Shown one piece after another: positions 2,851-48,285 of a DNA stretch of 64,000 nucleotides (positions within the stretch are counted from its first letter, which is position 1; every line of letters starts with the position of its first letter). Below the pieces are notes generated by a model that was not told the origin of the DNA, searched no databases, and saw nothing but the letters and a program-made list of their open reading frames with translations. Position numbers and translations under genes: made by a program. Location: NCBI RefSeq assembly GCF_003018255.1, contig NZ_CP027440.1, one strand, 5' to 3'. Source of the stretch: Escherichia coli. GTDB lineage: Bacteria > Pseudomonadota > Gammaproteobacteria > Enterobacterales > Enterobacteriaceae.

Positions 2851-2923
2851 AGTGCACCTCCAGTGGCCTAAAAGTGATACCGGAAGAGTAGAATTCTGGC
2901 TGCAAAGATTTCGCAAAAATCTG

Positions 2924-2955
2924 CGGGCGGGGTGTAAAAAAAGTATAAAAATGGC
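2924..2955 (-). promoter_or_regulatory. Probable KdpE response-regulator box upstream of kdpF
   Basis: Minus-strand sequence CATTTTTATACTTTTTTTACACCCCGCCCG with TTTATA/TTTACA half-sites, about 75-105 bp upstream of the kdpF start; matches the KdpE operator as I remember it. Confidence 0.55.
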
Positions 2956-3162
2956 AAAAGCCATGATTTAACTAATGTTTAGTATTAATTTAACCTTTGT
3001 GTAACTTAATTACGGTATGAATGTAAATAAACCATCAATAAGCAAAAATAAGTGGTCGGATGAGTAGTAAAATTACACAAAAGGCGGTACTATTTTCATC
3101 AGATAAACAAATTCATTTTTCCGGTGCTATTCACCGGGTAGATACAAAAGGGGGAGAAAAGT

Positions 3163-3369
3163 ATGGAACTCTACAGAGAATATCCTGCATGGCTTATCTT
3201 TTTACGCCGTACTTATGCGGTTGCAGCGGGCGTTCTGGCGCTGCCTTTCATGCTTTTCTGGAAAGACCGCGCCCGCTTTTACAGCTACCTGCACCGCGTC
3301 TGGTCGAAAACCAGCGATAAACCGGTGTGGATGGATCAGGCCGAAAAGGCGACTGGTGATTTTTACTGA
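3163..3369 (+). CDS. ybfA: Small conserved membrane protein YbfA (68 aa)
   Basis: [71 protein letters not shown]; GGAG-type RBS upstream. Confidence 0.85.
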
Positions 3370-3393
3370 TTGCTGAGTTCTGAATACATTGAA

Positions 3394-3427
3394 AACCGCC
3401 AGCGGAAACGCTGGCGGTTTTTTTTGT
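3394..3427 (+). terminator. Rho-independent terminator after ybfA
   Basis: Hairpin CCGCCAGCG-GAAA-CGCTGGCGG followed by a run of 8 T. Confidence 0.8.
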
Positions 3428-3613
3428 ATCAGGAAGATGTTCAGAGGAATATTTAGACACCGTTATACCAATCGAAACATATATTCATGAAATATATATA
3501 AATATTTTCCTAATTGTTCTTATCTGACAGATATCTCACTTAAGGCTTTCTTATAAATCTGTAGGGTTTCGCCTGTCAGCAGACAAATAACCCGATAAAA
3601 CAAGGATGAGCAG

Positions 3614-32044: not shown

Positions 32045-33211
32045 ATGAACTTACATGAATATCAGGCAAAACAACTTTTTGCCCGCTATGGCTTACCAGC
32101 ACCGGTGGGTTATGCCTGTACTACTCCGCGCGAAGCAGAAGAAGCCGCTTCAAAAATCGGTGCCGGTCCGTGGGTAGTGAAATGTCAGGTTCACGCTGGT
32201 GGCCGCGGTAAAGCGGGCGGTGTGAAAGTGGTAAACAGCAAAGAAGACATCCGTGCTTTTGCAGAAAACTGGCTGGGCAAGCGTCTGGTAACGTATCAAA
32301 CAGATGCCAATGGCCAACCGGTTAACCAGATTCTGGTTGAAGCAGCGACCGATATCGCTAAAGAGCTGTATCTCGGTGCCGTTGTAGACCGTAGTTCACG
32401 TCGCGTGGTCTTTATGGCCTCCACCGAAGGCGGCGTGGAAATCGAAAAAGTGGCGGAAGAAACTCCGCACCTGATCCACAAAGTTGCGCTTGATCCGCTG
32501 ACTGGCCCGATGCCGTATCAGGGACGCGAGCTGGCGTTCAAACTGGGTCTGGAAGGTAAACTGGTTCAGCAGTTCACCAAAATCTTCATGGGCCTGGCGA
32601 CCATTTTCCTGGAGCGCGACCTGGCGCTGATCGAAATCAACCCGCTGGTCATCACCAAACAGGGCGATCTGATTTGCCTCGACGGCAAACTGGGCGCTGA
32701 CGGCAACGCATTGTTCCGCCAGCCTGATCTGCGCGAAATGCGTGACCAGTCGCAGGAAGATCCGCGTGAAGCACAGGCTGCACAGTGGGAACTGAACTAC
32801 GTTGCGCTGGACGGTAACATCGGTTGTATGGTTAACGGCGCAGGCCTGGCGATGGGCACCATGGACATCGTTAAACTGCACGGCGGCGAACCAGCTAACT
32901 TCCTGGACGTTGGCGGCGGCGCAACCAAAGAACGTGTAACCGAAGCGTTCAAAATCATCCTCTCTGACGACAAAGTGAAAGCCGTTCTGGTTAACATCTT
33001 CGGCGGTATCGTTCGTTGCGACCTGATCGCTGACGGTATCATCGGCGCGGTAGCGGAAGTGGGTGTTAACGTACCGGTCGTGGTACGTCTGGAAGGTAAC
33101 AACGCCGAACTCGGCGCGAAGAAACTGGCTGACAGCGGCCTGAATATTATTGCAGCAAAAGGTCTGACGGATGCAGCTCAGCAGGTTGTTGCCGCAGTGG
33201 AGGGGAAATAA
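32045..33211 (+). CDS. sucC: Succinyl-CoA synthetase beta subunit (388 aa)
   Basis: [36 protein letters not shown]... Confidence 0.97.
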
Positions 33212-34080
33212 TGTCCATTTTAATTGATAAAAACACCAAGGTTATCTGCCAGGGCTTTACCGGTAGCCAGGGGACTTTCCACTCAGAACAGGCCATTGCA
33301 TACGGCACTAAAATGGTTGGCGGCGTAACCCCAGGTAAAGGCGGCACCACCCACCTCGGCCTGCCGGTGTTCAACACCGTGCGTGAAGCTGTTGCTGCTA
33401 CTGGCGCTACCGCTTCTGTTATCTACGTACCAGCACCGTTCTGCAAAGACTCCATTCTGGAAGCTATTGATGCAGGCATCAAACTAATTATCACCATCAC
33501 TGAAGGCATCCCGACGCTGGATATGCTGACCGTGAAAGTGAAACTGGATGAAGCAGGCGTTCGTATGATCGGCCCGAACTGCCCAGGCGTTATCACTCCG
33601 GGTGAATGCAAAATCGGTATCCAGCCGGGTCACATTCACAAACCGGGTAAAGTGGGTATCGTTTCCCGTTCCGGTACACTGACCTATGAAGCGGTTAAAC
33701 AGACCACGGATTACGGTTTCGGTCAGTCGACCTGTGTCGGTATCGGCGGTGACCCGATCCCTGGCTCTAACTTTATCGACATCCTCGAAATGTTCGAAAA
33801 AGATCCGCAGACCGAAGCGATCGTGATGATCGGTGAGATCGGCGGTAGCGCTGAAGAAGAAGCGGCTGCGTACATCAAAGAGCACGTTACCAAGCCTGTT
33901 GTGGGTTACATCGCTGGTGTGACTGCGCCGAAAGGCAAACGTATGGGCCACGCGGGTGCGATCATTGCCGGTGGGAAAGGGACTGCGGATGAGAAATTCG
34001 CTGCTCTGGAAGCCGCAGGCGTGAAAACCGTTCGCAGCCTGGCGGATATCGGTGAAGCACTGAAAACTGTTCTGAAATAA
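33211..34080 (+). CDS. sucD: Succinyl-CoA synthetase alpha subunit (289 aa)
   Basis: [45 protein letters not shown]... Confidence 0.97.
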
Positions 34081-34180
34081 ATATCTGTAATAAGAAATAG
34101 CCCTCGCCGCTTCCTTCTACAGGAATGGCGAAGGGCTGTCGGTTTCGACATGGTTGGCCATCATATGATGGCCTTTTTTG
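34081..34180 (+). ncRNA. sdhX: 3-prime-UTR-derived small RNA region of sucD (SdhX/RybD-like) with intrinsic terminator
   Basis: About 100 nt after the sucD stop with two hairpins (AGCCCTCGCC...GGCGAAGGGCT and GGCCATCATATGATGGCC) followed by a T run at 34173-34179; ends not determined. Confidence 0.5.
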
Positions 34181-34183
34181 TGC

Positions 34184-34906
34184 TTATCGCGATGATTTTC
34201 GCTGCGCTATCAGGGTAAATTTATAGTCATCGGTATTAAAAGCGTTGCGGCTATATTCAAACACCCGGCCATCAACTAAATATCCACGCGATACTTTTTC
34301 AAGAATCGGCTTAGTCTGGCTGATATTAAGCAGACGGCTCATTTCTTCGGTTGGCATCAGAGGAATGATTTCCTGTTCGCTACGATCGATAACCATTTTC
34401 TTCACTTCTTCAATAAAGTGATATTTCGAATTTTCCATGACCTGCCAGGTGAGATCCGGGAACAACGCAAGCGGCATCCAGGTTTCTTCCAGCGCCATTG
34501 GCTTTTGCTTGCGATAGCGCACGCGCTTCACATGCCACACACGATCCTGCGCGGTGATTTGTAGCTGTTGCTGAAGAAAATCGTCAGCCGGAATCACTTC
34601 GAATATCAGAACTTCACTGTGTGTATCGACGTGACGGTCCGTCAGTTTTTCATCAAAACTGGTTAACTGAAAAATATCGTAATTGACCCGCTCTTCTTTT
34701 ACGTAAGTCCCGCTGCCCTGAATGCTTTCGAGGATCTGCTGTTCAACTAACTGGCGCAAAGCCTGACGCACCGTAACCCGGCTGACGCCAAACTCTGTTT
34801 GTAGCGCTGATTCAGTGGGTAACGCATCGCCAGGTTTAAGCTCGCCACGCGCAATTTGCTCACGAATGCGATCAGCAATCTGTCGGTATAAGGGTTTCCG
34901 TCCCAT
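34184..34906 (-). CDS. mngR: GntR-family transcriptional regulator of the mannosyl-D-glycerate operon (240 aa)
   Basis: N-terminal GntR HTH (MGRKPLYRQIADRIREQIARGELKPGDALPTESALQTEFGVSRVTVRQAL) plus UTRA-type C-terminal domain. Confidence 0.93.
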   Translation of the reverse strand: MGRKPLYRQIADRIREQIARGELKPGDALPTESALQTEFGVSRVTVRQALRQLVEQQILESIQGSGTYVKEERVNYDIFQLTSFDEKLTDRHVDTHSEVLIFEVIPADDFLQQQLQITAQDRVWHVKRVRYRKQKPMALEETWMPLALFPDLTWQVMENSKYHFIEEVKKMVIDRSEQEIIPLMPTEEMSRLLNISQTKPILEKVSRGYLVDGRVFEYSRNAFNTDDYKFTLIAQRKSSR

Positions 34907-35015
34907 GATTTAGCATCTCATTAATACGAATTTAGCCATTATGCCCGATAAATTCATCCTGTAAATAATACAAATACAATACAAATAATTTCAATCAAGT
35001 GAAATTGATCACATA

Positions 35016-36992
35016 ATGGTATTGTTTTATCGGGCACACTGGCGCGACTATAAAAACGATCAAGTGAGGATCATGATGAACCTGACGACTCTGACCCACC
35101 GCGATGCGTTGTGTCTGAATGCGCGCTTTACCAGCCGTGAAGAGGCCATCCACGCGTTGACTCAACGTCTTGCTGCTCTGGGGAAAATTTCCAGTACTGA
35201 GCAATTTCTGAAAGAAGTGTATCGCCGTGAAAGCCTTGGCCCGACCGCCTTAGGTGAAGGGCTGGCTGTGCCGCATGGCAAAACTGCTGCGGTAAAAGAA
35301 GCGGCGTTTGCGGTCGCCACACTCAGCGAGCCGCTTCAGTGGGAAGGCGTGGATGGCCCGGAAGCGGTTGATTTAGTGGTGTTGCTGGCGATTCCCCCCA
35401 ATGAAGCGGGTACTACGCACATGCAACTGCTGACAGCGCTGACCACGCGCCTGGCGGATGATGAGATACGGGCGCGTATACAGTCGGCGACGACGCCTGA
35501 TGAATTGCTCTCGGCGCTGGATGACAAGGGAGGCACGCAACCCTCAGCTTCTTTTTCCAACGCGCCAACTATCGTCTGCGTAACGGCCTGCCCGGCGGGT
35601 ATTGCTCACACCTATATGGCTGCGGAGTATCTGGAAAAAGCCGGACGCAAACTCGGCGTGAATGTCTACGTTGAAAAGCAAGGTGCTAACGGCATTGAAG
35701 GGCGTTTAACGGCAGAGCAACTCAATAGTGCAACCGCCTGTATTTTTGCGGCTGAAGTCGCCATCAAGGAGAGTGAGCGTTTTAACGGCATTCCCGCGCT
35801 TTCTGTGCCTGTTGCCGAGCCGATTCGCCATGCAGAAGCGTTGATCCAACAAGCGCTTAACCTCAAGCGTAGCGATGAGACGCGTACCGTACAGCAAGAT
35901 ACGCAACCGGTGAAAAGCCTCAAAACGGAGCTAAAACAGGCACTGTTGAGCGGGATCTCTTTTGCAGTGCCGTTGATTGTCGCGGGGGGCACGGTGCTGG
36001 CGGTTGCGGTATTACTGTCGCAAATCTTCGGGCTACAAGATTTGTTTAATGAAGAAAACTCCTGGCTGTGGATGTACCGCAAACTGGGCGGAGGGCTGCT
36101 CGGGATTTTGATGGTACCGGTGCTGGCAGCCTACACCGCCTATTCACTGGCTGATAAACCGGCGTTAGCGCCAGGCTTTGCGGCTGGACTTGCCGCCAAC
36201 ATGATCGGTTCCGGGTTTCTCGGTGCTGTCGTTGGCGGATTGATAGCCGGTTATCTGATGCGCTGGGTGAAAAATCACTTGCGTCTTAGCAGTAAATTCA
36301 ATGGATTCCTGACTTTTTATCTCTACCCGGTGCTCGGTACGTTGGGAGCGGGCAGTCTGATGCTGTTTGTGGTGGGGGAACCTGTCGCCTGGATCAATAA
36401 CTCGCTTACCGCCTGGCTGAACGGTCTGTCAGGAAGTAACGCGCTGTTGCTGGGTGCCATTCTCGGTTTTATGTGTTCCTTTGACCTTGGAGGGCCAGTG
36501 AACAAAGCCGCTTATGCATTCTGCCTGGGCGCAATGGCGAACGGCGTTTACGGCCCGTATGCCATTTTCGCCTCCGTCAAAATGGTTTCGGCATTTACCG
36601 TAACCGCTTCCACGATGCTCGCACCGCGCCTGTTTAAAGAGTTTGAAATTGAGACCGGGAAATCCACCTGGCTGTTAGGGCTGGCAGGTATTACCGAAGG
36701 GGCGATCCCGATGGCGATTGAAGATCCGCTGCGGGTTATTGGTTCGTTTGTGCTGGGCTCTATGGTAACGGGCGCTATCGTCGGCGCGATGAATATCGGC
36801 CTTTCGACACCCGGTGCCGGCATTTTCTCGCTCTTTTTACTTCATGATAATGGCGCGGGCGGTGTTATGGCGGCAATTGGCTGGTTTGGTGCGGCATTGG
36901 TGGGGGCTGCAATCTCGACTGCAATTCTTCTGATCTGGCGGCGTCACGCGGTTAAGCATGGCAACTATCTGACTGATGGCGTAATGCCATAA
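35016..36992 (+). CDS. mngA: PTS 2-O-alpha-mannosyl-D-glycerate-specific EIIABC component (658 aa)
   Basis: EIIA (PTS-type) N-terminal domain, EIIB, and polytopic EIIC domain; divergent from mngR. Confidence 0.9.
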
Positions 36993-37009
36993 ACAAAAAG
37001 GAAACGACG

Positions 37010-39643
37010 ATGAAAGCGGTATCTCGCGTTCACATCACCCCGCATATGCACTGGGATCGGGAGTGGTATTTCACCACCGAAGAGTCACGCATTCTGCTGG
37101 TCAATAATATGGAAGAGATCCTGTGCCGACTGGAACAGGACAACGAATACAAATATTACGTACTCGACGGGCAAACGGCGATCCTCGAAGATTATTTCGC
37201 GGTGAAACCGGAAAACAAAGACCGTGTGAAGAAACAGGTAGAAGCAGGCAAGTTGATTATCGGCCCCTGGTATACCCAGACCGATACCACGATTGTTTCT
37301 GCGGAATCCATCGTCCGTAATCTGATGTACGGAATGCGTGACTGCCTCACGTTTGGCGAGCCGATGAAAATAGGTTATTTACCAGATTCCTTTGGCATGT
37401 CCGGGCAACTGCCGCATATTTACAATGGATTTGGCATTACCCGCACCATGTTCTGGCGCGGATGTTCTGAGCGCCACGGTACTGATAAAACCGAGTTTTT
37501 GTGGCAAAGCAGTGACGGTAGCGAAGTGACGGCGCAGGTGCTGCCGCTGGGCTACGCCATCGGTAAGTACTTACCTGCCGACGAAGACGGATTACGCAAA
37601 CGCCTCGACAGTTATTTTGATGTGCTGGAAAAAGCGTCAGTAACCAAAGAGATTTTGCTGCCGAATGGTCATGACCAGATGCCATTGCAGCAAAATATCT
37701 TCGAAGTGATGGATAAGCTACGTGAGATCTACCCTCAACGTAAGTTTGTGATGAGCCGCTTTGAAGAGGTATTTGAGAAGATCGAAGCGCAGCGAGATAA
37801 TCTGGCAACCCTGAAAGGGGAATTTATTGATGGCAAATATATGCGCGTGCATCGCACCATCGGTTCTACGCGTATGGATATCAAAATTGCCCACGCGCGT
37901 ATTGAAAATAAGATTGTTAATCTGCTGGAACCGCTGGCAACGCTGGCCTGGACGTTGGGTTTTGAATACCACCACGGCTTGCTGGAGAAATTGTGGAAAG
38001 AAATTTTAAAAAACCACGCCCATGACAGCATCGGCTGCTGCTGTAGTGACAAAGTTCATCGCGAGATTGTCGCCCGTTTCGAACTGGCAGAAGACATGGC
38101 GGATAATCTGCTGCGTTTCTATATGCGTAAAATTGCCGATAACATGCCACAGAGTGATGCCGACAAACTTGTGCTGTTTAACCTGATGCCCTGGCCGCGG
38201 GAAGAAGTGATCAACACCACTGTGCGGCTGCGCGCCAGCCAGTTTAATTTGCGGGACGATCGCGGTCAGCCTGTACCGTATTTTATTCGCCATGCCCGTG
38301 AGATCGATCCTGGCCTAATCGATCGGCAAATCGTTCATTACGGTAATTATGATCCCTTTATGGAGTTTGATATTCAGATCAACCAGATTGTCCCTTCTAT
38401 GGGCTATCGCACGCTTTATATCGAAGCGAATCAGCCTGGCAACGTGATTGCGGCAAAAAGTGACGCTGAAGGGATACTGGAAAATGCTTTCTGGCAAATT
38501 GCGCTCAATGAGGATGGAACGCTACAACTGGTAGATAAAGACAGCGGTGTGCGCTATGACCGGGTGTTGCAAATTGAAGAAAGCTCTGATGATGGTGATG
38601 AATATGACTATTCACCCGCAAAAGAAGAGTGGGTAATTACTTCGGCGAACGCGAAACCGCAATGCGAGATTACTCATGAGGCCTGGCAGAGTAGGGCTGT
38701 TATCCGCTATGACATGGCGGTGCCGCGTAATCTGCATGAACGCAGCGCAAGACAATCCACTGGCAGAGTAGGGGTGGAGTTGGCTGTCACTCTGAGTGAT
38801 AACAGCAGGCGCATTGATGTGGATATCAACCTTGATAACCAGGCTGACGATCATCGCCTTCGCGTCCTGGTCCCTACACCTTTTAACACCGACAGTGTTC
38901 TGGCCGATACCCAGTTTGGTTCGCTAACGCGCCCCGTGAACGACAGTGCAATGAACAACTGGCAGCAAGAAGGCTGGAAAGAAGCGCCGGTTCCGGTATG
39001 GAATATGCTCAACTATGCTGCCTTACAGGAAGGGCGTAACGGTCTGGCTGTCTTTAGCGAAGGGCTACGTGAATATGAAGTCATCGGTGAAGAGAAGAAA
39101 ACCTTTGCCATTACGTTGCTGCGTGGCGTGGGCTTACTGGGGAAAGAAGATCTGCTTTTAAGGCCTGGACGTCCTTCAGGAATAAAAATGCCGGTGCCCG
39201 ATTCACAATTACGTGGCTCCTTTAGCTGCCGTCTGAGCTTATTTAGTTATACAGGTACGCCTTCGACCGCCGGTGTAGCCCAGCAGGCGCGCGCATGGCT
39301 GACGCCAGTACAGTGTTACAACAAAATCCCGTGGGATGCGATGAAGTTAAATAAAGCCGGATTCAATGTGCCGGAAAGCTATAGCTTGCTGAAAATGCCC
39401 CCTGTGGGATGCCTGATTAGCGCTCTTAAAAAAGCGGAAGACCGGCAAGAAGTGGTATTGCGACTGTTTAATCCGGCAGAATCGACAACCTGTGAGGCAA
39501 CTGTCGCGTTCAGTCGTGAGGTGATTTCATGTACGCAAACGATGATGGATGAAAGCATCAGCACAGCGGAAAGAGATAATTTAAAGGAACTGGGGGCATT
39601 TTTACCGGGGCAGTCACGGACATTTAGCTACCGCCTTGGCTGA
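37010..39643 (+). CDS. mngB: Alpha-mannosidase, glycoside hydrolase family 38 (877 aa)
   Basis: [38 protein letters not shown]... GH38 signature. Confidence 0.93.
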
Positions 39644-39681
39644 TTATTGCGCTAAAAGTGTATCTGAGGGGGGCAATAATT

Positions 39682-39712
39682 TCAGGCCATCTTCGGATGG
39701 CCTGAGATTGTT
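39682..39712 (+). terminator. Probable terminator after mngB
   Basis: Hairpin TCAGGCCATC-TTCG-GATGGCCTGA followed by a T-rich stretch. Confidence 0.55.
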
Positions 39713-39787
39713 GATAAACAAGTTTGTTAGCTTACGCAGATACCAGATTTGACCTGCGTGAGAACCGCAGGCCATTTATCATTTCAG

Positions 39788-41185
39788 TTACCCCTTAAAC
39801 GTTAACCACGGTCGAAATCTGACCGCTGGCTGAATTAATCCGGCTTCTTGTTGGGCTTCGATAACCGGACCAATATCTTTATAAGCCGCTGGCGCTTCTT
39901 CAAAACGTCGTTCTTCGCGCAATGTGACGCATTGCCACGGCAGCGTTGACTCTTCAGTCGCGCGTGAGCGCATGGCCTGCCGACGCTGGCTGCGTCCTGC
40001 TCCGTGACTGCATGACCACAGCCACTCCGGGTTGCCGCAACCTACCGCAAGCCACGAATAATCGCCCATTGAACCGGGGATTAACGCCAGATTGCCCACT
40101 CGTGCCGGTGTTGCGCCTTTGCGATGAATATTCATTTCATGCTCGCGAAGGATGATGTTATGTGGCACATCCACCACCAGATGCGAATTGTCCTGATGAA
40201 AGAGATTGGCAAGACATACGCGCACCATTTCGGCAATTGTGACGCGATTTAACCATGCGTAACGCGCCGCCATTCCTATCGCTTGTAGATATTCCTCCGC
40301 CAGTCCGCCTGCCAGACCATATAACCCGCTTTGTGGATGTTTATGTCCGGTGGGCCATTCAGCACGGGCGCGATCCATCCAGCGTCTTCCGACGTAAAAG
40401 CCAACATCTCGCGATCCACTGTGGATCATCACCACAATATCGCCTGTTTTCAGCCCTTGTTGCCAGGCTACATGGCGATCAACCACGCTATCAACGACCT
40501 GAAGTTCAATAAAATGATTACCTGAACCCGGCGTACCCAGACAAGGATCGCGGAGTAATGCGCGGTCCGTTGCCTGCAGGGCGGGTGGGGCATAACGCGA
40601 ATGACTGTTATGCTCGTTAAGCCCAATGCAGCGGTCAATCTCTTGTACCATTCGGGGGATATTCGTGCGTATCCAGAGACCTTCTGATGGCAAGGTCGAC
40701 ACGCAATCTGCCGGTCCGCCATCAAAAAGCGCGGTGAACGCCTGTGCGGATAACGGAACATCGCGCTCATTTTGCAGTAGCACTTGCGTTAACCGCTGAG
40801 CGATGACGTCTTTATGCGCTTCGGCTTGCTCAAGTGTTAATCCGGTCGTCAGCAGCCGCATGCCACAAGAAATATCGGTGCCGATGGCGGCGGGAATGAC
40901 TAAATCCGGCGTTGAGGCCACCACCGCGCCAACGGGGACGCCATTGCCGGGATGAAAATCTGGCGTCGCGCACGTCTGGCGCACATAACCTGGGTGGTCT
41001 GGTAGCTTCACTTCTGCAAAATCAAGCAGTTGTGTTACTGCTTTTTCTTCCAGCGGCAGTTCGTCCGGCAGCAGTACGCGGGCACTGGCACCTGATGGAC
41101 GAGATAATGAAACAATATTGTTGGCGCGGGAAAGTTGGATCCCTTTGCGCAGAAAGGCTTTATCAAGCCTTGAAAGATGATGCAT
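39788..41185 (-). CDS. RtcB-family RNA 3-prime-phosphate ligase paralog (465 aa), orphan
   Basis: Conserved RtcB motifs: TPDFHPGNG, IPAAIGTDISCGMRLL, GTPGSGNHFIELQ, MIHSGSRDVG, IPGSMG, CSHGAGR, AYKDIGPVIEAQ; N-terminus about 30 aa longer than canonical RtcB; start codon uncertain. Confidence 0.85.
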   Translation of the reverse strand: MHHLSRLDKAFLRKGIQLSRANNIVSLSRPSGASARVLLPDELPLEEKAVTQLLDFAEVKLPDHPGYVRQTCATPDFHPGNGVPVGAVVASTPDLVIPAAIGTDISCGMRLLTTGLTLEQAEAHKDVIAQRLTQVLLQNERDVPLSAQAFTALFDGGPADCVSTLPSEGLWIRTNIPRMVQEIDRCIGLNEHNSHSRYAPPALQATDRALLRDPCLGTPGSGNHFIELQVVDSVVDRHVAWQQGLKTGDIVVMIHSGSRDVGFYVGRRWMDRARAEWPTGHKHPQSGLYGLAGGLAEEYLQAIGMAARYAWLNRVTIAEMVRVCLANLFHQDNSHLVVDVPHNIILREHEMNIHRKGATPARVGNLALIPGSMGDYSWLAVGCGNPEWLWSCSHGAGRSQRRQAMRSRATEESTLPWQCVTLREERRFEEAPAAYKDIGPVIEAQQEAGLIQPAVRFRPWLTFKG

Positions 41186-41490
41186 AACGCTGTCCTGAAA
41201 TATAGACGTTAAACAACCCCCTGTATGGCGAGGGTAATTTTGTCTTTCCGGTCAGCAGCCAGCAAAAGGGAAAGAAAACGCGCGTAGTGTATGTGGCGAT
41301 AGCAAGTGTTACAAGTGGTAAATCTGGCTTATTGTTAAAGAGGAATTATCTTTTGTGAAGTCTTTTAAGGCCATGACTCATTCAATTTAACCGGACATAG
41401 ATAATATATAACATAGGGTATCTAAATTTATCATTGTATACTTGTCATAATTCAAGTTGCATGTGCTGCATCGATGTTCGCTCACCCAGG

Positions 41491-42060
41491 TCACTTACTT
41501 ATGTAAGCTTCTGGAAATTCATTATTTGTTCCCTTCCTGCAACTTGACTTATTTAGAGTATATTCATGTATACACATCGAGATTTCAGCCAGCAGACGCG
41601 CATCTGGCGTGCCGTGGCGGATCTGTAGCGGTTTTTGCAGAGTTTCGGTGAGGCGACGGCAAGCTGCAACGCCGTGGTTAACGACCGGTAAACCGTTCAG
41701 TTTAGAGGTTCCGGCTTCGATGGATTTTTTAATCCCTACAGCCGCTTCTTCGTACCGATTCAGACGGGTATATGCATCGATGGTGCTCGGCAGCAGATCG
41801 CACTCTTCTTGTAGTGTTTTCAGTAGTTCGATGTGTTCGTCCATCAGCGCCACACCTGCGCGCGGTTGGCTAAGGGTTTTACCTTCCTTGTCTGCTTTCA
41901 ACAGCGCAAGAGAGAAGCGTTTATGCTCAGGAATGGTTTGTTGGTATTTAACGCCATCTTCAAAGTTTTCAACATCCTTGCCGGTTTCCCAGGTTTTCAG
42001 TACCTGTTGCCGCTCGGTCATGAATTCGTCATGGGTTAATTTCTTATTTCGAAGTTCCAT
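41491..42060 (-). pseudogene. glmE: Glutamate mutase E (epsilon) subunit, truncated: 189 codons versus about 480 in intact homologs
   Basis: [33 protein letters not shown]...[20 protein letters not shown]...[15 protein letters not shown]...[13 protein letters not shown] resembles the GlmE N-terminus; similarity ends near codon 165, then 24 unrelated codons and stop. Confidence 0.75.
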
Positions 42061-42078
42061 TGATTGCAGCCTTAATTG

Positions 42079-43467
42079 TTATAGGGTTAAGCATTGAATA
42101 CTGGTGCGCGCGGCGGCCAGCGGATCGACTCTGGCGACGTTTGCCAGCAGTGGTAATAGCCCCCGGGAATCGCGGTAATATTCAAATTCGGTCGGTAAGA
42201 GAATGCGTTTACCGTCGTCGTTTAACTCGCGGTATTTCAACCAGTGATGCATATCGAACTGACTGGCACGCGAGAGCCATCCGCCGGATCCGACGACTTT
42301 ACGCACGGTTGTCAGGTCACGTCCCATCTGTAAATCGACATTGCCGACGCAGGTGCAGACCTCTTTTTTGGTGCCCGCATGTCTTTCGGTGGCATAACCC
42401 ACACACAGTCCGGCCAGGACGGTATCGAAATATTTTTCTTCTGCATTCGCGGGTAAGTAGTCGGGATGAGCGACTAGATGACGGAGGTAATGATAAAAAG
42501 CGTCCAGCTGTGCGGGTTGCTGAGCAAAATTCACATTGACTAACTCTTTCGCACTTTCACCAACCACCATTGCCGAGACGCGCATTCCCAGATCTCCTTC
42601 CACCGTCCGTTTTACGAAGGGTTCCGGTACGCCATGTAAAACAGTGTCGGGCGAGAGCGTGTTGGCACTGGCGGAATAGACATCGGTGGTTGCGCCACCC
42701 ATGTCGATCAGCATGAACTCTTTCCAGCTGTGATCGACATTACTGATTGCCTTAACCAGTTCAAAGACTGTCCACGGTGTCGGCATTGGTTCTTCGCCTG
42801 TTTTATCAACAACGACATCCAGCCCTTTCCCTTTAACGATGCGTTTAAGGAATATGTCGCAGATAGCCTGGCGTGCAGCTAAAGGGTTCGGATGGTCAAG
42901 ATCGGGCAGAACGTTGTCGACGATGGTCAGGTCTTTATGCCCGAGGATCTCCTGCACCTCGTCCTGAATATCCCGGTTTCCGGCATAAATAATGGCGCAG
43001 TCGAGTTTGGATTCTGCCAACACACGGGCGTTATTCAGTCCGTAGCTTTCTTCTCCGCCATCGGTGCCGCCGGTGAACAAGAGAATATCGGGCTGCGTTT
43101 CTTCCAGTGCCTGGATATCACGGCGGTTCAGCTTGTAGGCGTAAGATTGCGCAATTTTAGCACCCGCAGAGTGAGCGGTTACTTTCGCGGTTTCCAGGGT
43201 GATAGAAGGCACCAATCCCATTGCGGCAACCGCCAGCCCACCTTTGGCAGAGGAGGAATACTTCAATGCAACCTCACCACTGTTTAACAGGGGGAGGGCA
43301 TCATCTACGTTTAACACCTGGTCCAGGCTGGAGAAAAACCCCTTCGCCAGATGATGGGTGGTGGTTGGGGTCAGTACGTGGTTAACCAACGTTAACGCGT
43401 CCCCCTCCCGGGCGAAGAGGGCTGCTTTGGTCCACGTCGATCCAATATCGACAGAGACGATTTGCAT
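42079..43467 (-). CDS. glmL: Glutamate mutase accessory protein GlmL/MutL-like (462 aa)
   Basis: [18 protein letters not shown]... actin/Hsp70-like ATPase fold; translationally coupled to glmS (TGATG overlap); placed between glmS and glmE as in clostridial operons. Confidence 0.75.
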   Translation of the reverse strand: MQIVSVDIGSTWTKAALFAREGDALTLVNHVLTPTTTHHLAKGFFSSLDQVLNVDDALPLLNSGEVALKYSSSAKGGLAVAAMGLVPSITLETAKVTAHSAGAKIAQSYAYKLNRRDIQALEETQPDILLFTGGTDGGEESYGLNNARVLAESKLDCAIIYAGNRDIQDEVQEILGHKDLTIVDNVLPDLDHPNPLAARQAICDIFLKRIVKGKGLDVVVDKTGEEPMPTPWTVFELVKAISNVDHSWKEFMLIDMGGATTDVYSASANTLSPDTVLHGVPEPFVKRTVEGDLGMRVSAMVVGESAKELVNVNFAQQPAQLDAFYHYLRHLVAHPDYLPANAEEKYFDTVLAGLCVGYATERHAGTKKEVCTCVGNVDLQMGRDLTTVRKVVGSGGWLSRASQFDMHHWLKYRELNDDGKRILLPTEFEYYRDSRGLLPLLANVARVDPLAAARTSIQCLTL

Positions 43468-43916
43468 CAGATTGCCTCTTCAAGAATACGAGTATCAACG
43501 TCATGACGTTGGTTGATATCGTGGGCCATCAGCTGACAAACATCTTCTAAGTCATGACTTGGGGCAAAGACGCGATCAAATCCCATCTCTTTGAATTTGG
43601 TTTCCACGTCAGCGAAGTCATGTTTTCCGACCACCAGGTTACCGCCCACATAGAGCAGGATGTCCCCCAGTCCACGCTCGATGCAGCGTTCGCGCATGCC
43701 CAGACAGTCGATATCGCCATGCCCATAGATAGAGGAGACGACAATCGCGTCAGCACCAGTTTCAATGGCAGCATCAATATATTCGTCCTGGCTGACCATT
43801 ACGCCCAGATTAATAACTCTGAAGTCATGGTTGCTAAAAACGCGGTCCAGAACTTTATTGCCTACTGCATGGCAGTCCGCGCCAATAACGCCAATCACAA
43901 GTGTTGCTTTCTTCAT
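43467..43916 (-). CDS. glmS: Glutamate mutase S (sigma) subunit, B12-binding (149 aa)
   Basis: [24 protein letters not shown]... with the DxHxxG cobalamin-binding motif; AGGA RBS 7 nt upstream of this ATG (the listed ORF extends 21 codons further upstream). Confidence 0.8.
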
Positions 43917-44463
43917 GGGTAATCCTTTGTAAGACAGAGAGTAAAATAAGTTACACACGTCGTATTTATGGCCGCTCATAACGGCACAGGTTTAATATCA
44001 CAGGAGTGTCTTTATCTGACCGTAATGTTGCAATTGATCTATTTTCAAAATGTCTTTCGGGAAATGATTGTTTAAAGTGTGTTTTCAAATTCTCATGTTA
44101 ATTCAGTGTGTTATGTCAACTAATGTCATGAATGTTAAATTTTTAAAATTAACTTGATTTGATGTATTGAGATAATTGTGATCAACTTCTAATTTGCATT
44201 TTAGTGATATGGGGTTAGCCATGAGTAAATGCATTTCATAAAAGTTAAGTCGAATTTCACTGCAATTCATCTCTGCTTAATGTAAAAATAATGTTGAAAA
44301 TAACAAATAATTAATGATTCATGCGAATTATGACCTTTGTTAGCTCTTTTGATTTTTCGTAAAAAAGAAAAGTACATGAAGGTGCTACCAGTACGAGAAA
44401 CGTTAATCAAAAGTTTTATTACGTCTGGCAATAACGCAGGCCATTTTTCGCGACAGGAGGGAT

Positions 44464-44886
44464 TTAATCAGTATAATCCTCATACAATAGGTCAGGATTT
44501 ACAGAACCGTTAACGGGGTTTTGGTGTTGAAATTTAGAAATGGTGGAGTCAATCAATGAAGACAGTATCGAAAAAATGACTGTGTCAGAATTAATTTCAA
44601 TTAATCCTTCTCGTTGTTGACCAAAAAAGATATTTATCTTGATTTCATTTGTACTACGGAAATCAATATGTAGTAATTTTTGATCGCTGAGATTTTCTGT
44701 TTCATAAATGTTTTTGGCGATAGTCGGATGTATTGATGCCAGACATCTGCTCAGATAAGCCAGATCCTTTAGGGAACACCCCGCTGAGTAGAGGATGTCA
44801 GAGAATTTTTGTGTGTCAACTGTTGGCTCTGAAGCGTATGTTGCATTGACTGGAAGGGTGTTGAAGGAGATTTGAGATGGGATCAT
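44464..44886 (-). CDS. Hypothetical protein (140 aa), small and acidic, low GC
   Basis: Intact ORF MIPSQISFNTLPVNATYASEPTVDTQKF...; no recognisable motif; sits in an AT-rich segment of the island. Confidence 0.5.
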   Translation of the reverse strand: MIPSQISFNTLPVNATYASEPTVDTQKFSDILYSAGCSLKDLAYLSRCLASIHPTIAKNIYETENLSDQKLLHIDFRSTNEIKINIFFGQQREGLIEINSDTVIFSILSSLIDSTISKFQHQNPVNGSVNPDLLYEDYTD

Positions 44887-44966
44887 TATTTAAATCTTTC
44901 CGTGAGTAATAAAAATTAATCCCCGGGCATTGTTTAGTAATATTTGCCACAGGGGATATATAAAAA

Positions 44967-45911
44967 TTAAAGTATTTGATTGGCATCGGTTAACTGATCA
45001 ATAACCAGTGCCAGATTGGTAAACATTTTGAAAAAGCGATACTGGCTCGGAATATCTCTTTCAAAGACGAAACATTCAATGTCATTGTTTGAAAAATAAA
45101 GGACTAGTGATGCTGATTCGTCAGGAAAAATATGGAAATATATCTGGTTACCAGAAGGAGGATAGTCCAGAAGAAGGGTATCTTTGCCCGTCACATACCT
45201 GTTGTGGTCGTGGATGCTGCGCTCACACTTCATCAGAGGTGTCATGATACTCATGTATTCATCTGATGTTAATATATTAAAATCACCATCCATTTTAAAG
45301 AAACGATAAAGTAACAGTACATCCTCTTGCGTAACCGGTTCGTTTGTTTTTAGAGGGAAATAAGTGGGAACCAGAAGATGAGGTTCTAATCTATTTTGTT
45401 GAGCGCTATAACTAAATTTGAACATAAATTCCGGATCGCTCATCAATTGAGCGACATAATTATGCCTGGCTTCAAAAATTTTAACTTTTATCAGGTTAAA
45501 TAAGTCTGTTTCGTCATCCTGTATTAAAAGACATTGGCCATAGCAGCCAGGCTTTTTTTCATTATAAGCAGAAACGGTTATTCTGTCAGGAGTGTCAACG
45601 TTATATCCAAAAGCCAGATAGTGACCTTCCTCATCGAGATTTGTTTCCAGGTTATTTAAATTCATCACATGAAGTGTTTGCAATGCTGATTCAATGAGCT
45701 GTTGACTCTCTGAGGTAAATGTTTCGCGCTGCGTTGTATAAAGTGTATCGATTCCAACGACTATCCGATGTGGGTCAAGGATGGCGGCAATCATCTTTAT
45801 TACCTGCACAGTCATGGGTGATGTCATTGATTCTTTATCTGTTTTTAGAGGATCATTAGATGGCCAACCTGAGAAGCGATTGACAGCAGAACTGATAATA
45901 TCAGGACTCAT
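44967..45911 (-). CDS. Hypothetical protein (314 aa), low GC
   Basis: Intact ORF MSPDIISSAVNRFSGWPSNDPLKTDKESM...; GAGG RBS 8 nt upstream of ATG; no signal peptide or TM helix evident; no family recognised. Confidence 0.6.
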   Translation of the reverse strand: MSPDIISSAVNRFSGWPSNDPLKTDKESMTSPMTVQVIKMIAAILDPHRIVVGIDTLYTTQRETFTSESQQLIESALQTLHVMNLNNLETNLDEEGHYLAFGYNVDTPDRITVSAYNEKKPGCYGQCLLIQDDETDLFNLIKVKIFEARHNYVAQLMSDPEFMFKFSYSAQQNRLEPHLLVPTYFPLKTNEPVTQEDVLLLYRFFKMDGDFNILTSDEYMSIMTPLMKCERSIHDHNRYVTGKDTLLLDYPPSGNQIYFHIFPDESASLVLYFSNNDIECFVFERDIPSQYRFFKMFTNLALVIDQLTDANQIL

Positions 45912-46365
45912 AGCAGCAACCTCATTGTAATCAAGCGAGGCGCTGAGCGTACTCGGCTATAGAAAAACTAACTTGCAAAAATCGCTCATTTTTCATTTAT
46001 CAGGCGAAAGTGGTCTCTGTTCACTCAGAAACAATCACTCCCGCTAAGTCATACCTGTTTCATCGATACATTTAAGTGATTATTACTAATGAAACAATAA
46101 CATAATGGGCTTACGGCCGGTGCTCATAAACGCAACAATCAATTAACTTTGATAAAAATATGTTATGTAAAATAGCAACAAATTGGCTAATCTAATCAAT
46201 TGGTATTATAAAAAGTGGATAAGGCGGTTCTGTTAAATAAAACACTGGTTTTTTATCTATACCTTTTCATTGTAATAATTGTGTTGCATAAATATTTCAC
46301 AATAAATTAACAATAAAATCACCAATGATCTATGGTTTATACATAATTAACATATTTGGTTGATT

Positions 46366-46379
46366 TTGATATAAATCAA
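46366..46379. promoter_or_regulatory. FNR/CRP-type palindromic site in the cydA upstream region
   Basis: Perfect TTGAT-ATAA-ATCAA (TTGAT N4 ATCAA) about 340 bp upstream of cydA in an AT-rich leader. Confidence 0.55.
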
Positions 46380-46716
46380 TTTTTAATTCTTGAAAAAAAT
46401 CTGCAAAACACGATAAATTGTCGTAGATCAAATTGGTGAGATCGTGACAATTTCGCTATAAATTGATCACTGTCGAAAAATGCAAATTTGCTCAATAAAA
46501 ACCTGTTTATTGTAAGGATTTTGCGGCGTAATATAATTACGGGATCAATTTGGTTTATTCATTAACACATTTGTAACTTTTTTATCATTGTCTTTTCCTC
46601 TTTTGATGAAATGGCAACGATAGAGGCGAGCAAATAATTTTGTATTGGGGCATGCGTGTGACCCTTTCTAACGGGGTTCACTCTCGGAGTCTTCATGCGA
46701 TGAGCAAGGAGTCATG

Positions 46717-48285
46717 ATGTTAGATATAGTCGAACTGTCGCGCTTACAGTTTGCCTTGACCGCGATGTACCACTTCCTTTTTGTGCCACTGACGCTCGGT
46801 ATGGCGTTCCTGCTGGCCATTATGGAAACGGTCTACGTCCTTTCCGGCAAACAGATTTATAAAGATATGACCAAGTTCTGGGGCAAGTTGTTTGGTATCA
46901 ACTTCGCTCTGGGTGTGGCTACCGGTCTGACCATGGAGTTCCAGTTCGGGACTAACTGGTCTTACTATTCCCACTATGTAGGGGATATCTTCGGTGCGCC
47001 GCTGGCAATCGAAGGTCTGATGGCCTTCTTCCTCGAATCCACCTTTGTAGGTCTGTTCTTCTTCGGTTGGGATCGTCTGGGTAAAGTTCAGCATATGTGT
47101 GTCACCTGGCTGGTGGCGCTCGGTTCAAACCTGTCCGCACTGTGGATTCTGGTTGCGAACGGCTGGATGCAAAACCCAATCGCGTCCGATTTCAACTTTG
47201 AAACTATGCGTATGGAGATGGTGAGCTTCTCCGAGCTGGTGCTTAACCCGGTTGCTCAGGTGAAATTCGTTCACACTGTAGCGTCTGGTTATGTGACTGG
47301 CGCGATGTTCATCCTCGGTATCAGCGCATGGTATATGCTGAAAGGTCGTGACTTCGCCTTCGCTAAACGCTCTTTTGCTATCGCTGCCAGCTTCGGTATG
47401 GCTGCCGTTCTGTCTGTTATTGTTCTGGGTGATGAATCTGGTTACGAAATGGGCGACGTGCAGAAAACCAAACTGGCTGCTATTGAAGCCGAGTGGGAAA
47501 CGCAACCTGCGCCTGCTGCCTTTACTCTGTTCGGCATTCCTGATCAGGAAGAGGAGACGAACAAATTTGCGATCCAGATCCCTTACGCGCTGGGCATCAT
47601 TGCAACGCGTTCCGTGGATACTCCAGTTATCGGCCTGAAAGAACTGATGGTGCAGCATGAAGAACGCATTCGTAACGGGATGAAGGCGTACTCTCTGCTC
47701 GAGCAACTGCGTTCTGGTTCTACCGACCAGGCGGTTCGTGACCAGTTCAATAGCATGAAGAAAGACCTCGGTTACGGTCTGCTGCTGAAACGCTATACGC
47801 CAAACGTGGCTGATGCGACTGAAGCGCAGATTCAACAGGCAACCAAAGACTCCATTCCGCGTGTAGCGCCGCTGTACTTCGCGTTCCGTATCATGGTGGC
47901 GTGTGGCTTCCTGCTGCTGGCAATCATCGCGCTCTCTTTCTGGAGTGTCATCCGCAACCGCATTGGCGAGAAAAAATGGCTGCTGCGCGCCGCGCTGTAC
48001 GGTATTCCGCTGCCGTGGATTGCTGTAGAAGCGGGCTGGTTCGTGGCTGAATATGGTCGCCAACCGTGGGCTATCGGTGAAGTGCTGCCGACAGCTGTGG
48101 CGAACTCGTCACTGACCGCAGGCGATCTCATCTTCTCAATGGTGCTGATTTGCGGCCTGTATACCCTGTTCCTGGTGGCAGAATTGTTCTTAATGTTCAA
48201 ATTTGCACGCCTCGGCCCAAGCAGCCTGAAAACCGGTCGCTATCACTTTGAGCAGTCTTCCACGACTACTCAGCCGGCACGCTAA
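46717..48285 (+). CDS. cydA: Cytochrome bd-I ubiquinol oxidase subunit I (522 aa)
   Basis: [41 protein letters not shown]... Confidence 0.97.

Follow-up and report, generated by a model that had tools for sequence, protein, structure and literature searches.

Organization of the locus

The window analysed here is a stretch of 64,000 nucleotides from Escherichia coli (RefSeq assembly GCF_003018255.1, contig NZ_CP027440.1). This report concerns a segment of it, positions 41186–41565, which is bounded by the ATG of an RtcB-family RNA ligase gene (41185, minus strand) and the end of the similarity to GlmE. The genes of the region are arranged in the order sucD, mngR-mngA-mngB, RtcB-family gene, segment, truncated glmE, glmL, glmS, two AT-rich hypothetical genes and cydA. 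A preliminary description of the segment as approximately 380 bp of AT-rich DNA between the GlmE similarity and the RtcB start agrees with the GC content of 38.2% (flanking genes ~50–58%). The same description regarded the segment as a junction scar and the probable region of a breakpoint. The sequence comparisons presented below show it to be pre-existing, native intergenic DNA, composed of an ERIC element, an AT-rich spacer, the predicted RtcB promoter and a leader of about 100 nt, with a point joint at its right edge. The features of the locus are:

39788–41185, minus strand: intact gene for an RtcB-family RNA ligase, 465 aa (Pfam PF01139)
41186–41284, minus strand: conserved structured 5' leader of the RtcB mRNA, ~100 nt, proposed from context conservation, family architecture and covariation
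41286–41314, minus strand: predicted sigma-70-type RtcB promoter (-35 TTGTAA at 41309–41314, 17-nt spacer, -10 TACACT at 41286–41291)
41321–41436, no strand: AT-rich spacer, 29% GC, confined to the form of the locus with the RtcB-LysR intergenic region
41437–41562, no strand: ERIC (IRU) dispersed repeat, 126 nt, delimited by its terminal inverted repeat and the extent of similarity
41572–41575, no strand: deletion joint, with 41572 as the last base of the RtcB side, an untemplated CA at 41573–41574 and 41575 as the first base of the glmE side
41491–42060, minus strand: truncated glmE, consisting of 162 N-terminal codons of 481 (41575–42060) and 27 codons derived from intergenic DNA and ERIC

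The GC content is uneven along the segment: 46.7% for 41186–41320, 29.3% for 41321–41436 and 37.3% for 41437–41562. Recognisable non-coding sequence makes up two thirds of the segment. The absence of coding capacity noted earlier holds as far as conserved coding sequence is concerned, but the rightmost 80 bases are part of an open reading frame (ORF): the frame of the truncated glmE continues 27 codons into the segment and stops at the TGA at 41491–41493, yet these bases lie outside conserved coding sequence. The similarity to GlmE stops at 41575 rather than 41565, and the PGAP pseudogene call in identical genomes also ends at 41575.

The deletion joint

In strains with an intact cluster, the leftward RtcB gene is followed by a divergent spacer of 590 bp, a rightward gene for a LysR regulator and a series of leftward mesaconate-pathway genes. 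The latter comprise cobO, genes for a class I fumarate hydratase, a dicarboxylate/amino-acid symporter and a DUF4387 protein, an AtuA-family gene, the methylaspartate ammonia-lyase gene, glmE, glmL and glmS. Pairwise BLAST aligned positions 39793–41572 and 41575–48000 of the window with the intact-cluster strain ETEC1738, collinear and at 98.9% identity each, at positions 8,843 bp apart. Strain WCHEC040047, which carries mngRAB like the window, is collinear with 33001–41572 at 97.7% identity and has the same gap of 8,843 bp. The lost stretch begins 203 bp upstream of the start of the LysR gene, ends at glmE codon 162 and includes seven genes and most of glmE. These collinear alignments bear out the earlier view that a deletion truncated glmE and brought it beside RtcB.

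The breakpoint is a single point, 41572/41575, and the remainder of the segment is collinear with the intact strains. In ~145 complete genomes that carry the LysR gene and an untruncated glmE, the same RtcB-LysR intergenic DNA is present, and no intact-cluster genome was seen whose RtcB-LysR spacer lacks 41186–41572. The segment therefore aligns as ordinary intergenic DNA in genomes with full-length glmE, contrary to its description as a scar. The AT-rich spacer, too, is kept in the intact-cluster strains; unrelated DNA takes its place in an E. coli strain in which RtcB lies in the context of hut genes, in Citrobacter and in Escherichia sp.

Base by base, the joint reads ...TTCATGTATA/CA/CATCGAGATTTC... 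(in short, GTATA/CA/CATCGAG). In intact strains the left side continues as TGAATAATATT and the right side is preceded by ...GCTGGC; every base except CA is explained by the intact sequence. No base is shared between the two sides and no microhomology is present at the joint. Neither an insertion sequence (IS) end nor a phage attachment (att) core nor a target-site duplication was found there.

A megablast search with positions 40900–41900 against 5,426 complete E. coli genomes returned the arrangement of the window in five genomes; many more match only up to 41572. The joint is identical in 5 of the 5 deletion genomes, whose sources are humans in Japan, a rectal swab from intensive care unit staff in China, a monkey in Mexico and a pig in China. 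In strain A25, which differs from the window at 1.35% of the flanking positions, the joint is still the same. Because the joint is identical in all five genomes, a single deletion event is most likely: an illegitimate deletion of 8,843 bp in an ancestor with an intact cluster produced the joint 41572/CA/41575. The sequences thus point to a deletion that occurred once and was then inherited or spread by recombination.

The product of the truncated glmE matches positions 1–122 of 441 of the Pfam profile Met_asp_mut_E on its residues 43–162, and the gene is marked as a pseudogene in identical genomes. The mesaconate pathway cannot work in the window because seven genes and most of glmE are deleted. 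The joint is one more strain-level deletion in a variable island and matters little in itself; its effect is the loss of the methylaspartate (mesaconate) route for using glutamate in a few E. coli lineages.

The ERIC element

A sensitive search with 41186–41572 showed that 41437–41571 (135 bases) matches at 82–85% in 5,425 of the 5,426 E. coli genomes. The matches occur at 2–11 places per genome (median 6), and the listed places lie under no annotated feature. The best match in K-12 is a copy between ybhI and ybhJ. The ERIC2 primer aligns with two mismatches at 41479–41500 on the minus strand, where 0 matches are expected by chance. The ERIC1R half is degenerate; this primer gave no match with up to 3 mismatches and aligns with 4 mismatches by eye. 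The terminal inverted repeat has 25-nt arms that are 80% complementary, and the RNA of the element folds into a long hairpin (-32.5 kcal/mol, z -4.04; 0 of 200 shuffles fold as well). The element is found at the same place in the intact strains and is therefore older than the deletion.

ERIC elements are imperfect palindromes of 127 bp in enterobacteria and Vibrio (PMC6066780). The element of the window resembles them in length, hairpin, ERIC2 core, multiple copies and intergenic position. Nothing essential differs, apart from the degenerate ERIC1R half and the location of this copy, since the deletion, inside the tail of the truncated glmE frame. An ERIC element beside the joint is ordinary for such a genome.

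The only Rfam match in the ERIC region is a weak one to V_AS5 (Vibrio antisense RNA AS5). It covers the full length of the model (1–129) at 41441–41563 on the minus strand and scores 19.5 bits, compared with a threshold of 96 bits. This suggests that the V_AS5 family may be built on ERIC-like repeats of Vibrio.

Origin of the joint

Two other accounts of the joint have to be considered. In one of them the 380 bp itself would be the scar, either scrambled by the deletion or by recombination or left by an IS or a prophage att site, and RtcB would rely on a makeshift promoter. Such a view is suggested by an AT-rich segment between a truncated and an intact gene and by the presence of a repeat with terminal inverted repeats. 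Its probability is close to nil, as 41186–41572 is wholly collinear (~99%) with strains carrying full-length glmE, the new bases are the two of CA only, and conservation across genera extends from the gene to its promoter and leader. IS or phage att remnants, which the preliminary description had proposed to look for, were not found in the segment; its sole repeat is the ERIC element, at the same place in intact strains. The other account accepts the deletion as described and attributes it to ERIC (by a hairpin-stimulated break or an activity like that of miniature inverted-repeat transposable elements) or to a small palindrome at the breakpoint, rather than to chance. The left breakpoint at 41572 is 10 bp from the end of ERIC at 41562. 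Furthermore, the intact sequence TATTCAT-GTAT-ATGAATA forms a small hairpin that was broken at the junction of loop and right arm, and the filler CA completes an 8-bp palindrome, TGTATACA, as snap-back synthesis would. Against this stand the absence of another ERIC copy, or of any homologous sequence, from the right breakpoint within glmE, the lack of a target-site duplication, and at least one other independent deletion at the locus with different end points; as a single event is concerned, the closeness may also be chance. To our knowledge, no recombination activity of ERIC has been described. We consider a causal role of ERIC or the palindrome unlikely and take the pattern of palindrome and filler as a lead on the mechanism, not as a finding.

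The RtcB gene and its predicted promoter

The RtcB gene, annotated as 'RtcB family protein' in identical genomes, encodes a protein whose residues 63–465 match profile positions 7–426 of 426 of PF01139 (E 5.3e-95). Its scores reach neither the NCBIfam cut-off of canonical RtcB (PRK09588) nor that of release-factor-linked RtcB. The nearest solved structures are Thermus TTHA1785 and Pyrococcus RtcB, with relatives in the PDB at E values from 3e-43 to 1e-40. Cys107, His224, His255, His354 and His394 are invariant in eight orthologues; these residues are presumably catalytic.

Of the 5,426 complete E. coli genomes, 295 contain gene and leader, each in one copy on the chromosome. A convergent gene follows RtcB at most of 12 loci examined, so that RtcB is monocistronic there, and neither rtcR nor rtcA lies beside it at the loci inspected. 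Its neighbours in the window are mngB (convergent) and the truncated glmE; in intact strains the LysR gene adjoins it, and in other strains sucD and hutU. The same unit of gene and upstream region is found beside hutU, a cytosine permease gene and hutD in E. coli ampC_0069 (2911–5078) and in a Citrobacter metagenome-assembled genome, and Escherichia sp. MOD1 carries the RtcB gene in yet another setting. Across these three unrelated contexts, only the ~108 nt preceding the ATG and a CTTGT in the -35 element are nearly identical, and the sequence further upstream is unrelated. The limit of conservation lies at ~41293–41318 (108–130 nt before the ATG).

The conserved sequence includes the -10 element of the predicted promoter. 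In most representative loci a pair of -35 and -10 elements with a spacer of 17 nt is located 7–12 nt before the first hairpin of the leader (H1, see below), and the commonest -10 sequence is TAnAnT. In the window, the -10 TACACT lies 7 nt before strand a, the 5' arm of H1. Transcription would start at ~41279–41284, a few bases before 41278. The predicted promoter has 8 of 12 consensus matches and is under the cut-off of a simple scanner. A promoter scan missed it and returned a 9/12 site at 41331–41359, which was rejected as no better than those in shuffled sequences.

The preliminary description was right that the RtcB promoter lies in the segment; it is not supplied by the junction, as it belongs to a conserved module ~260 bp from the joint that the deletion left untouched. 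The statement that a sigma-54 motif is missing holds: a search of both strands of 41048–41599 for TGGCAC-N5-TTGCW, allowing up to 3 mismatches, returned nothing. Most likely, RtcB moves together with its own promoter and leader as one self-contained module; the position and conservation of this module are seen in the contexts described above, and its activity is predicted. Such a module would explain how RtcB stays expressible wherever it is placed, beside the glm cluster, beside hut genes or after the deletion. Since the deletion, RtcB lies downstream of glmS-glmL-glmE' on the same strand. Transcriptional read-through could enter RtcB via the ERIC hairpin, because no terminator-like site is present between glmE' and RtcB (minus strand, 41000–41800).

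The leader and its relatives

The leader contains one strand, termed b, with two possible partners. Pairing of b with strand a at the 5' end gives hairpin H1, whereas pairing of b with strand c near the start codon gives an elongated structure termed the rod. In the window the elements are, from 5' to 3' of the RNA:

41269–41278, minus strand: pyrimidine-rich strand a (UUUUCUUUCC), 5' arm of H1, at the 5' end of the transcript
41253–41259, minus strand: GCUGCUG heptamer in the loop of H1 (GCUG-GCUGCUG, 41253–41263)
41243–41250, minus strand: purine-rich strand b (CGGAAAGA), common to H1 and the rod
41216–41235, minus strand: hairpin H2, stem ACCCUC/GGGGGU, loop of 8 nt
41197–41207, minus strand: strand c (GUCUAUAUUUC), rich in pyrimidines, which pairs with strand b in the rod
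41188–41197, minus strand: CAGGACAGCG, with a weak Shine-Dalgarno sequence (AGGA) and a CAGC strand able to pair with GCUG of the leader loop

Related leaders were collected by one genome scan and one metagenome scan with the RtcB protein, which gave 88 loci with 55–95% amino-acid identity. The named genomes belong to Citrobacter, Escherichia, Massilia, Acidovorax, Undibacterium, Saezia, Gilliamella and Snodgrassella (Beta- and Gammaproteobacteria). Of 84 usable upstream regions, 80 contain an exact GCTGCTG 62–134 nt upstream of the start codon; in the window it is located at -74. The heptamer is invariant in the alignments A4 and A7. The order of elements is constant: promoter, strand a (consensus CUUUCUUG), a loop ending in GCUGCUG, strand b (CAAGAAAG), H2 as a GC-rich hairpin without conserved sequence, strand c, and (G)CAGC shortly upstream of the AUG. 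In 39 of 44 representatives, complementarity to the 3' end of 16S rRNA is weak in the usual Shine-Dalgarno window; the mean anti-Shine-Dalgarno energy of this window is -2.1 kcal/mol, compared with -4.7 kcal/mol for strand b. Strand b as a displaced Shine-Dalgarno sequence was rejected despite its better complementarity, since the AUG is at the opposite end of the base helix and neither fold leaves the strand unpaired.

Within enterobacteria, the ~108 nt before the ATG are 98.1% and 93.5% identical to the window, whereas third-position synonymous identity in the gene is 92.3% and 86.4%, respectively. The few changes are found in the loop of H2 and in the stretch just after H2.

An Rfam 15 search of 41150–41330 returned noise only (Phe_leader, 14.4 bits vs a cut-off of 55, E 4.6), and the leaders of eight other loci gave no Rfam match. 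No description of an RtcB-associated RNA motif or of this RtcB paralogue was found in the literature. The leader is a candidate for a new cis-regulatory RNA, and the family appears to be new. A conserved small upstream ORF was dismissed on reading the leader sequences, as they contain no conserved start codon.

Approximately one third of the leaders are long forms, in which GCUGCUG is 100–134 nt from the AUG and one or two extra hairpins are present. These have a conserved strand c similar to GUCCUUUCGCC straight after H2 (loci L022, L027–L032, L035–L038, L040, L050, L062 and others). Two loci with more distant RtcB homologues (56–57% identity; L078, L081) lack both GCUGCUG and anything resembling the leader upstream, which means that these lineages have no leader or that their start codons are mis-assigned. 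In Acidovorax sp. CF316 (L011), a tRNA gene (Rfam, 60.8 bits; 3656–3742, minus strand) lies on the strand opposite to the leader, slightly more than 100 nt upstream of it.

Two alternative folds

RNAalifold gave no structure on a plain MAFFT alignment of 40 leaders because the lengths of loops and spacers differ, and MAFFT on subsets was no better. Instead, anchored pair counts, partner-swap tests (Python) and covariance models from gapless or near-identical seeds were used.

For H1, a covariance model (R1) was built from nine gapless seeds. It has 57 matches at E <0.01 in 546 kb, all of them just upstream of RtcB and on its strand. In the resulting alignment 94.5% of the cells are paired (shuffled: 85.6%) and seven of the eight pairs show compensatory changes. 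The number of double-change cells is 39, compared with 13.7 ± 3.4 in shuffles, and 0 of 500 shuffles reach 39. In the window, R1 places H1 at 41241–41278 on the minus strand with 15.1 bits. The stem is CUUUCC/GGAAAG, with GGAAAG as the 3' arm, and the 19-nt loop contains GCUG-GCUGCUG.

Single-sequence folding of 45 short-form leaders yielded the rod as the minimum-energy fold almost always. In the rod, GCUGCU pairs with AGCAGC near the AUG (the base helix), strand b pairs with strand c, H2 forms the tip and strand a is single-stranded. A covariance model of the rod, started from two sequences and rebuilt once, recovered 34 non-enterobacterial loci, all on target; the E. coli copy was not recovered. 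In this alignment 90.4% of the cells are paired (shuffled: 68.1%), with 182 double-change cells compared with 60.1 ± 7.1 and a covariation score of 0.479 compared with 0.06–0.10 for slid partners. Compensatory changes are found in all 12 b:c pairs and in all seven H2 pairs, and both helices retain their pairing although their sequences are hardly conserved. In the base helix, pairing over the 34 loci amounts to 93.9%.

As the covariance-model alignments are fitted to the models, the helices were also examined by partner-swap tests on 43 non-redundant leaders, in which no covariance model was used. Own and swapped partners compare as follows:

H2: own -13.25 kcal/mol, swapped -7.52 kcal/mol, p 3e-13
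b:c: own -9.81 kcal/mol, swapped -6.97 kcal/mol, p 1.4e-8
a:b: own -9.67 kcal/mol, swapped -8.37 kcal/mol, p 4e-5
Base helix: own 6.84 bp, swapped 6.40 bp, p 0.026; shuffled tails 4.86 bp

Thus, comparative sequence analysis shows two mutually exclusive conserved structures, H1 and the rod, both of which covary and both of which use strand b. On average, the rod is 9.9 kcal/mol more stable than the best nested fold with H1; a pseudoknot between the H1 loop and the CAGC strand would narrow this gap. Of the last 14 nt before the AUG, 9.1 are paired in the rod and 6.0 in the hairpin form.

In the window leader the elements of the rod align in the right order, and the minimum-energy fold of the single sequence is the rod. 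It pairs GCUGGCUGCUGACC with GGACAGCGUUAUGC.

Proposed function of the leader

The two folds suggest that the leader sets the translation of RtcB, and probably the stability of its mRNA, by switching between two forms. In the first form, b would pair with the 5'-terminal strand a; the resulting 5' hairpin would display the invariant GCUGCUG in its loop and leave strand c free beside the start site. In the second form, b would pair with c and GCUGCUG with the CAGC before the AUG, giving a long rod that buries the start region and leaves the 5' end single-stranded. The hairpin form would accordingly have an open start site and a protected 5' end, and the rod form a paired start site and a single-stranded 5' end. 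H1 is transcribed first; new transcripts may therefore adopt the open form at first and settle into the rod later, and a factor that stabilizes either form would set the level of expression. On this model the leader would control the initiation of translation and probably decay. Two oddities may bear on such a factor: GCUGCUG is invariant although its partner varies, and the canonical Shine-Dalgarno window is weaker than the remote strand b.

Two roles of individual elements were examined and rejected. Transcription attenuation by H2 does not fit, as U-tracts after an extended stem are found only in low-GC members and are absent in GC-rich ones. GCUGCUG is the complement of CAGCAGC in the universally conserved 530 loop of 16S rRNA; the complementarity stops at the ends of the heptamer, and seven bases matching rRNA may well arise by chance.

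Taken together, native intergenic DNA, a single deletion, a mobile RtcB module and a switching leader form one reading of the locus, to which we assign a probability of about 80%. Several points weigh against it, mainly as regards the leader. For the window itself, the H1 score corresponds to an E value of 9.3e-5 in a targeted search of 301 nt and of 0.17 in the full 546 kb; the rod model (R3) gives 3.8 bits (E 0.51), and the single-sequence fold is unexceptional (z -1.31). The window leader is a divergent member of the family, its membership deriving mainly from orthology, position and the shared order of elements; the strong conservation within enterobacteria argues for membership as well. 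In the family, the base helix (GCUGCU:AGCAGC) has one-sided changes only, i.e. G-U substitutions, and the partner-swap test supports it weakly (p 0.026). Each covariance-model alignment was fitted to the very structure under test, and the metagenomic loci are mutually related, so that the shuffle counts cannot be read as probabilities. How far the two forms differ in energy is uncertain, since nested folding cannot score a possible pseudoknot. As for the deletion, the joint is without microhomology, and the gap of 10 bp to ERIC may or may not matter for its mechanism.

The same observations on the leader have been set against two simpler views. The conserved block could act at the level of DNA, as an operator whose inverted repeat CTTTCTTG...CAAGAAAG is bound by a transcription factor. 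The arms do form a conserved inverted repeat adjoining the promoter, and C-A combinations, which correspond to wobble pairs of the other strand, are not rare (34, compared with 60 G-U/U-G). The G-U pairs nevertheless outnumber this opposite-strand equivalent, the spacing of the arms varies from 8 to 23 nt, unlike that of a dimeric DNA-binding site, the repeat lies downstream of the -10 element and hence inside the transcript, and H2 and b:c keep pairing with almost no conserved sequence; an operator is therefore highly improbable. A real conserved RNA that does not switch deserves more attention. It would consist of a constitutive 5' stability hairpin and a structured spacer that together fix translation at a low level. 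5'-terminal hairpins, e.g. that of ompA, protect mRNAs from decay that depends on the 5' end, and H1 is situated at the extreme 5' end of the predicted transcript. Moreover, no ligand, protein partner or condition is known, and with the rod ~10 kcal/mol more stable than the nested alternative one form may dominate. Compensatory changes in both of the exclusive pairings of the same strand are hard to explain unless both form, and GCUGCUG is invariant beyond the needs of pairing. A leader that does not switch is thus a possibility to be kept in mind, though a rather doubtful one.

The switching leader could, in a more specific and clearly tentative form of the proposal, represent an undescribed class of regulatory RNA that switches a stand-alone RNA-repair ligase of Beta- and Gammaproteobacteria in response to a specific signal. 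Candidate signals, put forward just as tentatively, are a small molecule, the ligase itself, or fragments of tRNA or rRNA that pair with GCUGCUG or compete for it. The canonical RtcB ligase of E. coli is induced via RtcR and sigma-54. We know of no described control for the many RtcB genes without RtcR. If the proposal is true, the leader would be an RNA-based counterpart of RtcR, the protein sensor for RNA damage. As a sensor, it would provide a compact system for coupling RNA damage or a metabolite to RNA repair and would add one more motif to the orphan regulatory RNAs.

Comparison with known systems

The product of the window gene resembles that of the E. coli rtcBA/RtcR system in being an RNA ligase of the RtcB family, which joins 3'-phosphate and 5'-OH ends. 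It belongs to another subfamily, below the NCBIfam equivalog cut-off. The gene has neither a sigma-54 motif nor rtcR or rtcA as a neighbour, but a predicted sigma-70-type promoter and a structured leader. The ribosome-repair module RtcB2-PrfH (PMC9223846, PMC13166195) is comparable in that it also provides a second, strain-variable RtcB paralogue in E. coli; the paralogue of the window is not mentioned in these two papers. With 171.8 bits, the window RtcB is below the cut-off of 271.8 bits for the release-factor-linked family. In addition, its gene is monocistronic and has no prfH neighbour.

Leaders with alternative pairings that hide the ribosome-binding site include the expression platforms of riboswitches, the SAM-II and preQ1-II pseudoknots and the autoregulatory operator of rpsO. 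The RtcB leader is similar to these in being an element of the 5' untranslated region that is tied to one gene family and has covarying helices. It is further similar in possessing a strand with two competing partners, where the stabler fold pairs the region adjacent to the start codon. Unlike them, it matches no Rfam family, and neither a ligand nor a protein partner is known for it. Its polypyrimidine, polypurine and polypyrimidine strands, together with the invariant GCUGCUG loop, were matched to no described class.

The mesaconate island between sucD and cydA

The window shares the order glmS-glmL-glmE and the two AT-rich genes beside cydA with the mesaconate island between sucD and cydA of E. 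coli O157:H7 and other strains. The O157:H7-type island contains the LysR gene and the full glm cluster and no RtcB. The two forms differ in what was lost: the window lacks seven genes and most of glmE, whereas the O157-type island lost RtcB instead and keeps two short remnants of it. In O157:H7 strain 611 (L007), these remnants lie at ~3455–3551 and match the window at 39793–39831 and 40005–40061. They correspond to 39 bp of the 3' end of RtcB and 57 bp of internal sequence, at ~93% identity, and are situated between sucD and the LysR gene. A separate deletion therefore removed RtcB from the O157:H7-type island. Approximately 980 genomes appear to have the form of the island without RtcB.

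Two hypothetical ORFs of 140 aa (44464–44886) and 314 aa (44967–45911) are located between glmS and cydA on the minus strand, with a GC content of 27–42%. They have no Pfam match and are annotated as hypothetical in every version of the island inspected.

The interval between sucD and cydA is a mosaic of blocks, namely mng, RtcB, the glm cluster and hut, that are present or absent. The mngR-mngA-mngB block (34187–39792 of the window) lies between sucD and RtcB and is found in WCHEC040047 as well. It is absent in ETEC1738 and ampC_0069, where sucD directly adjoins RtcB.

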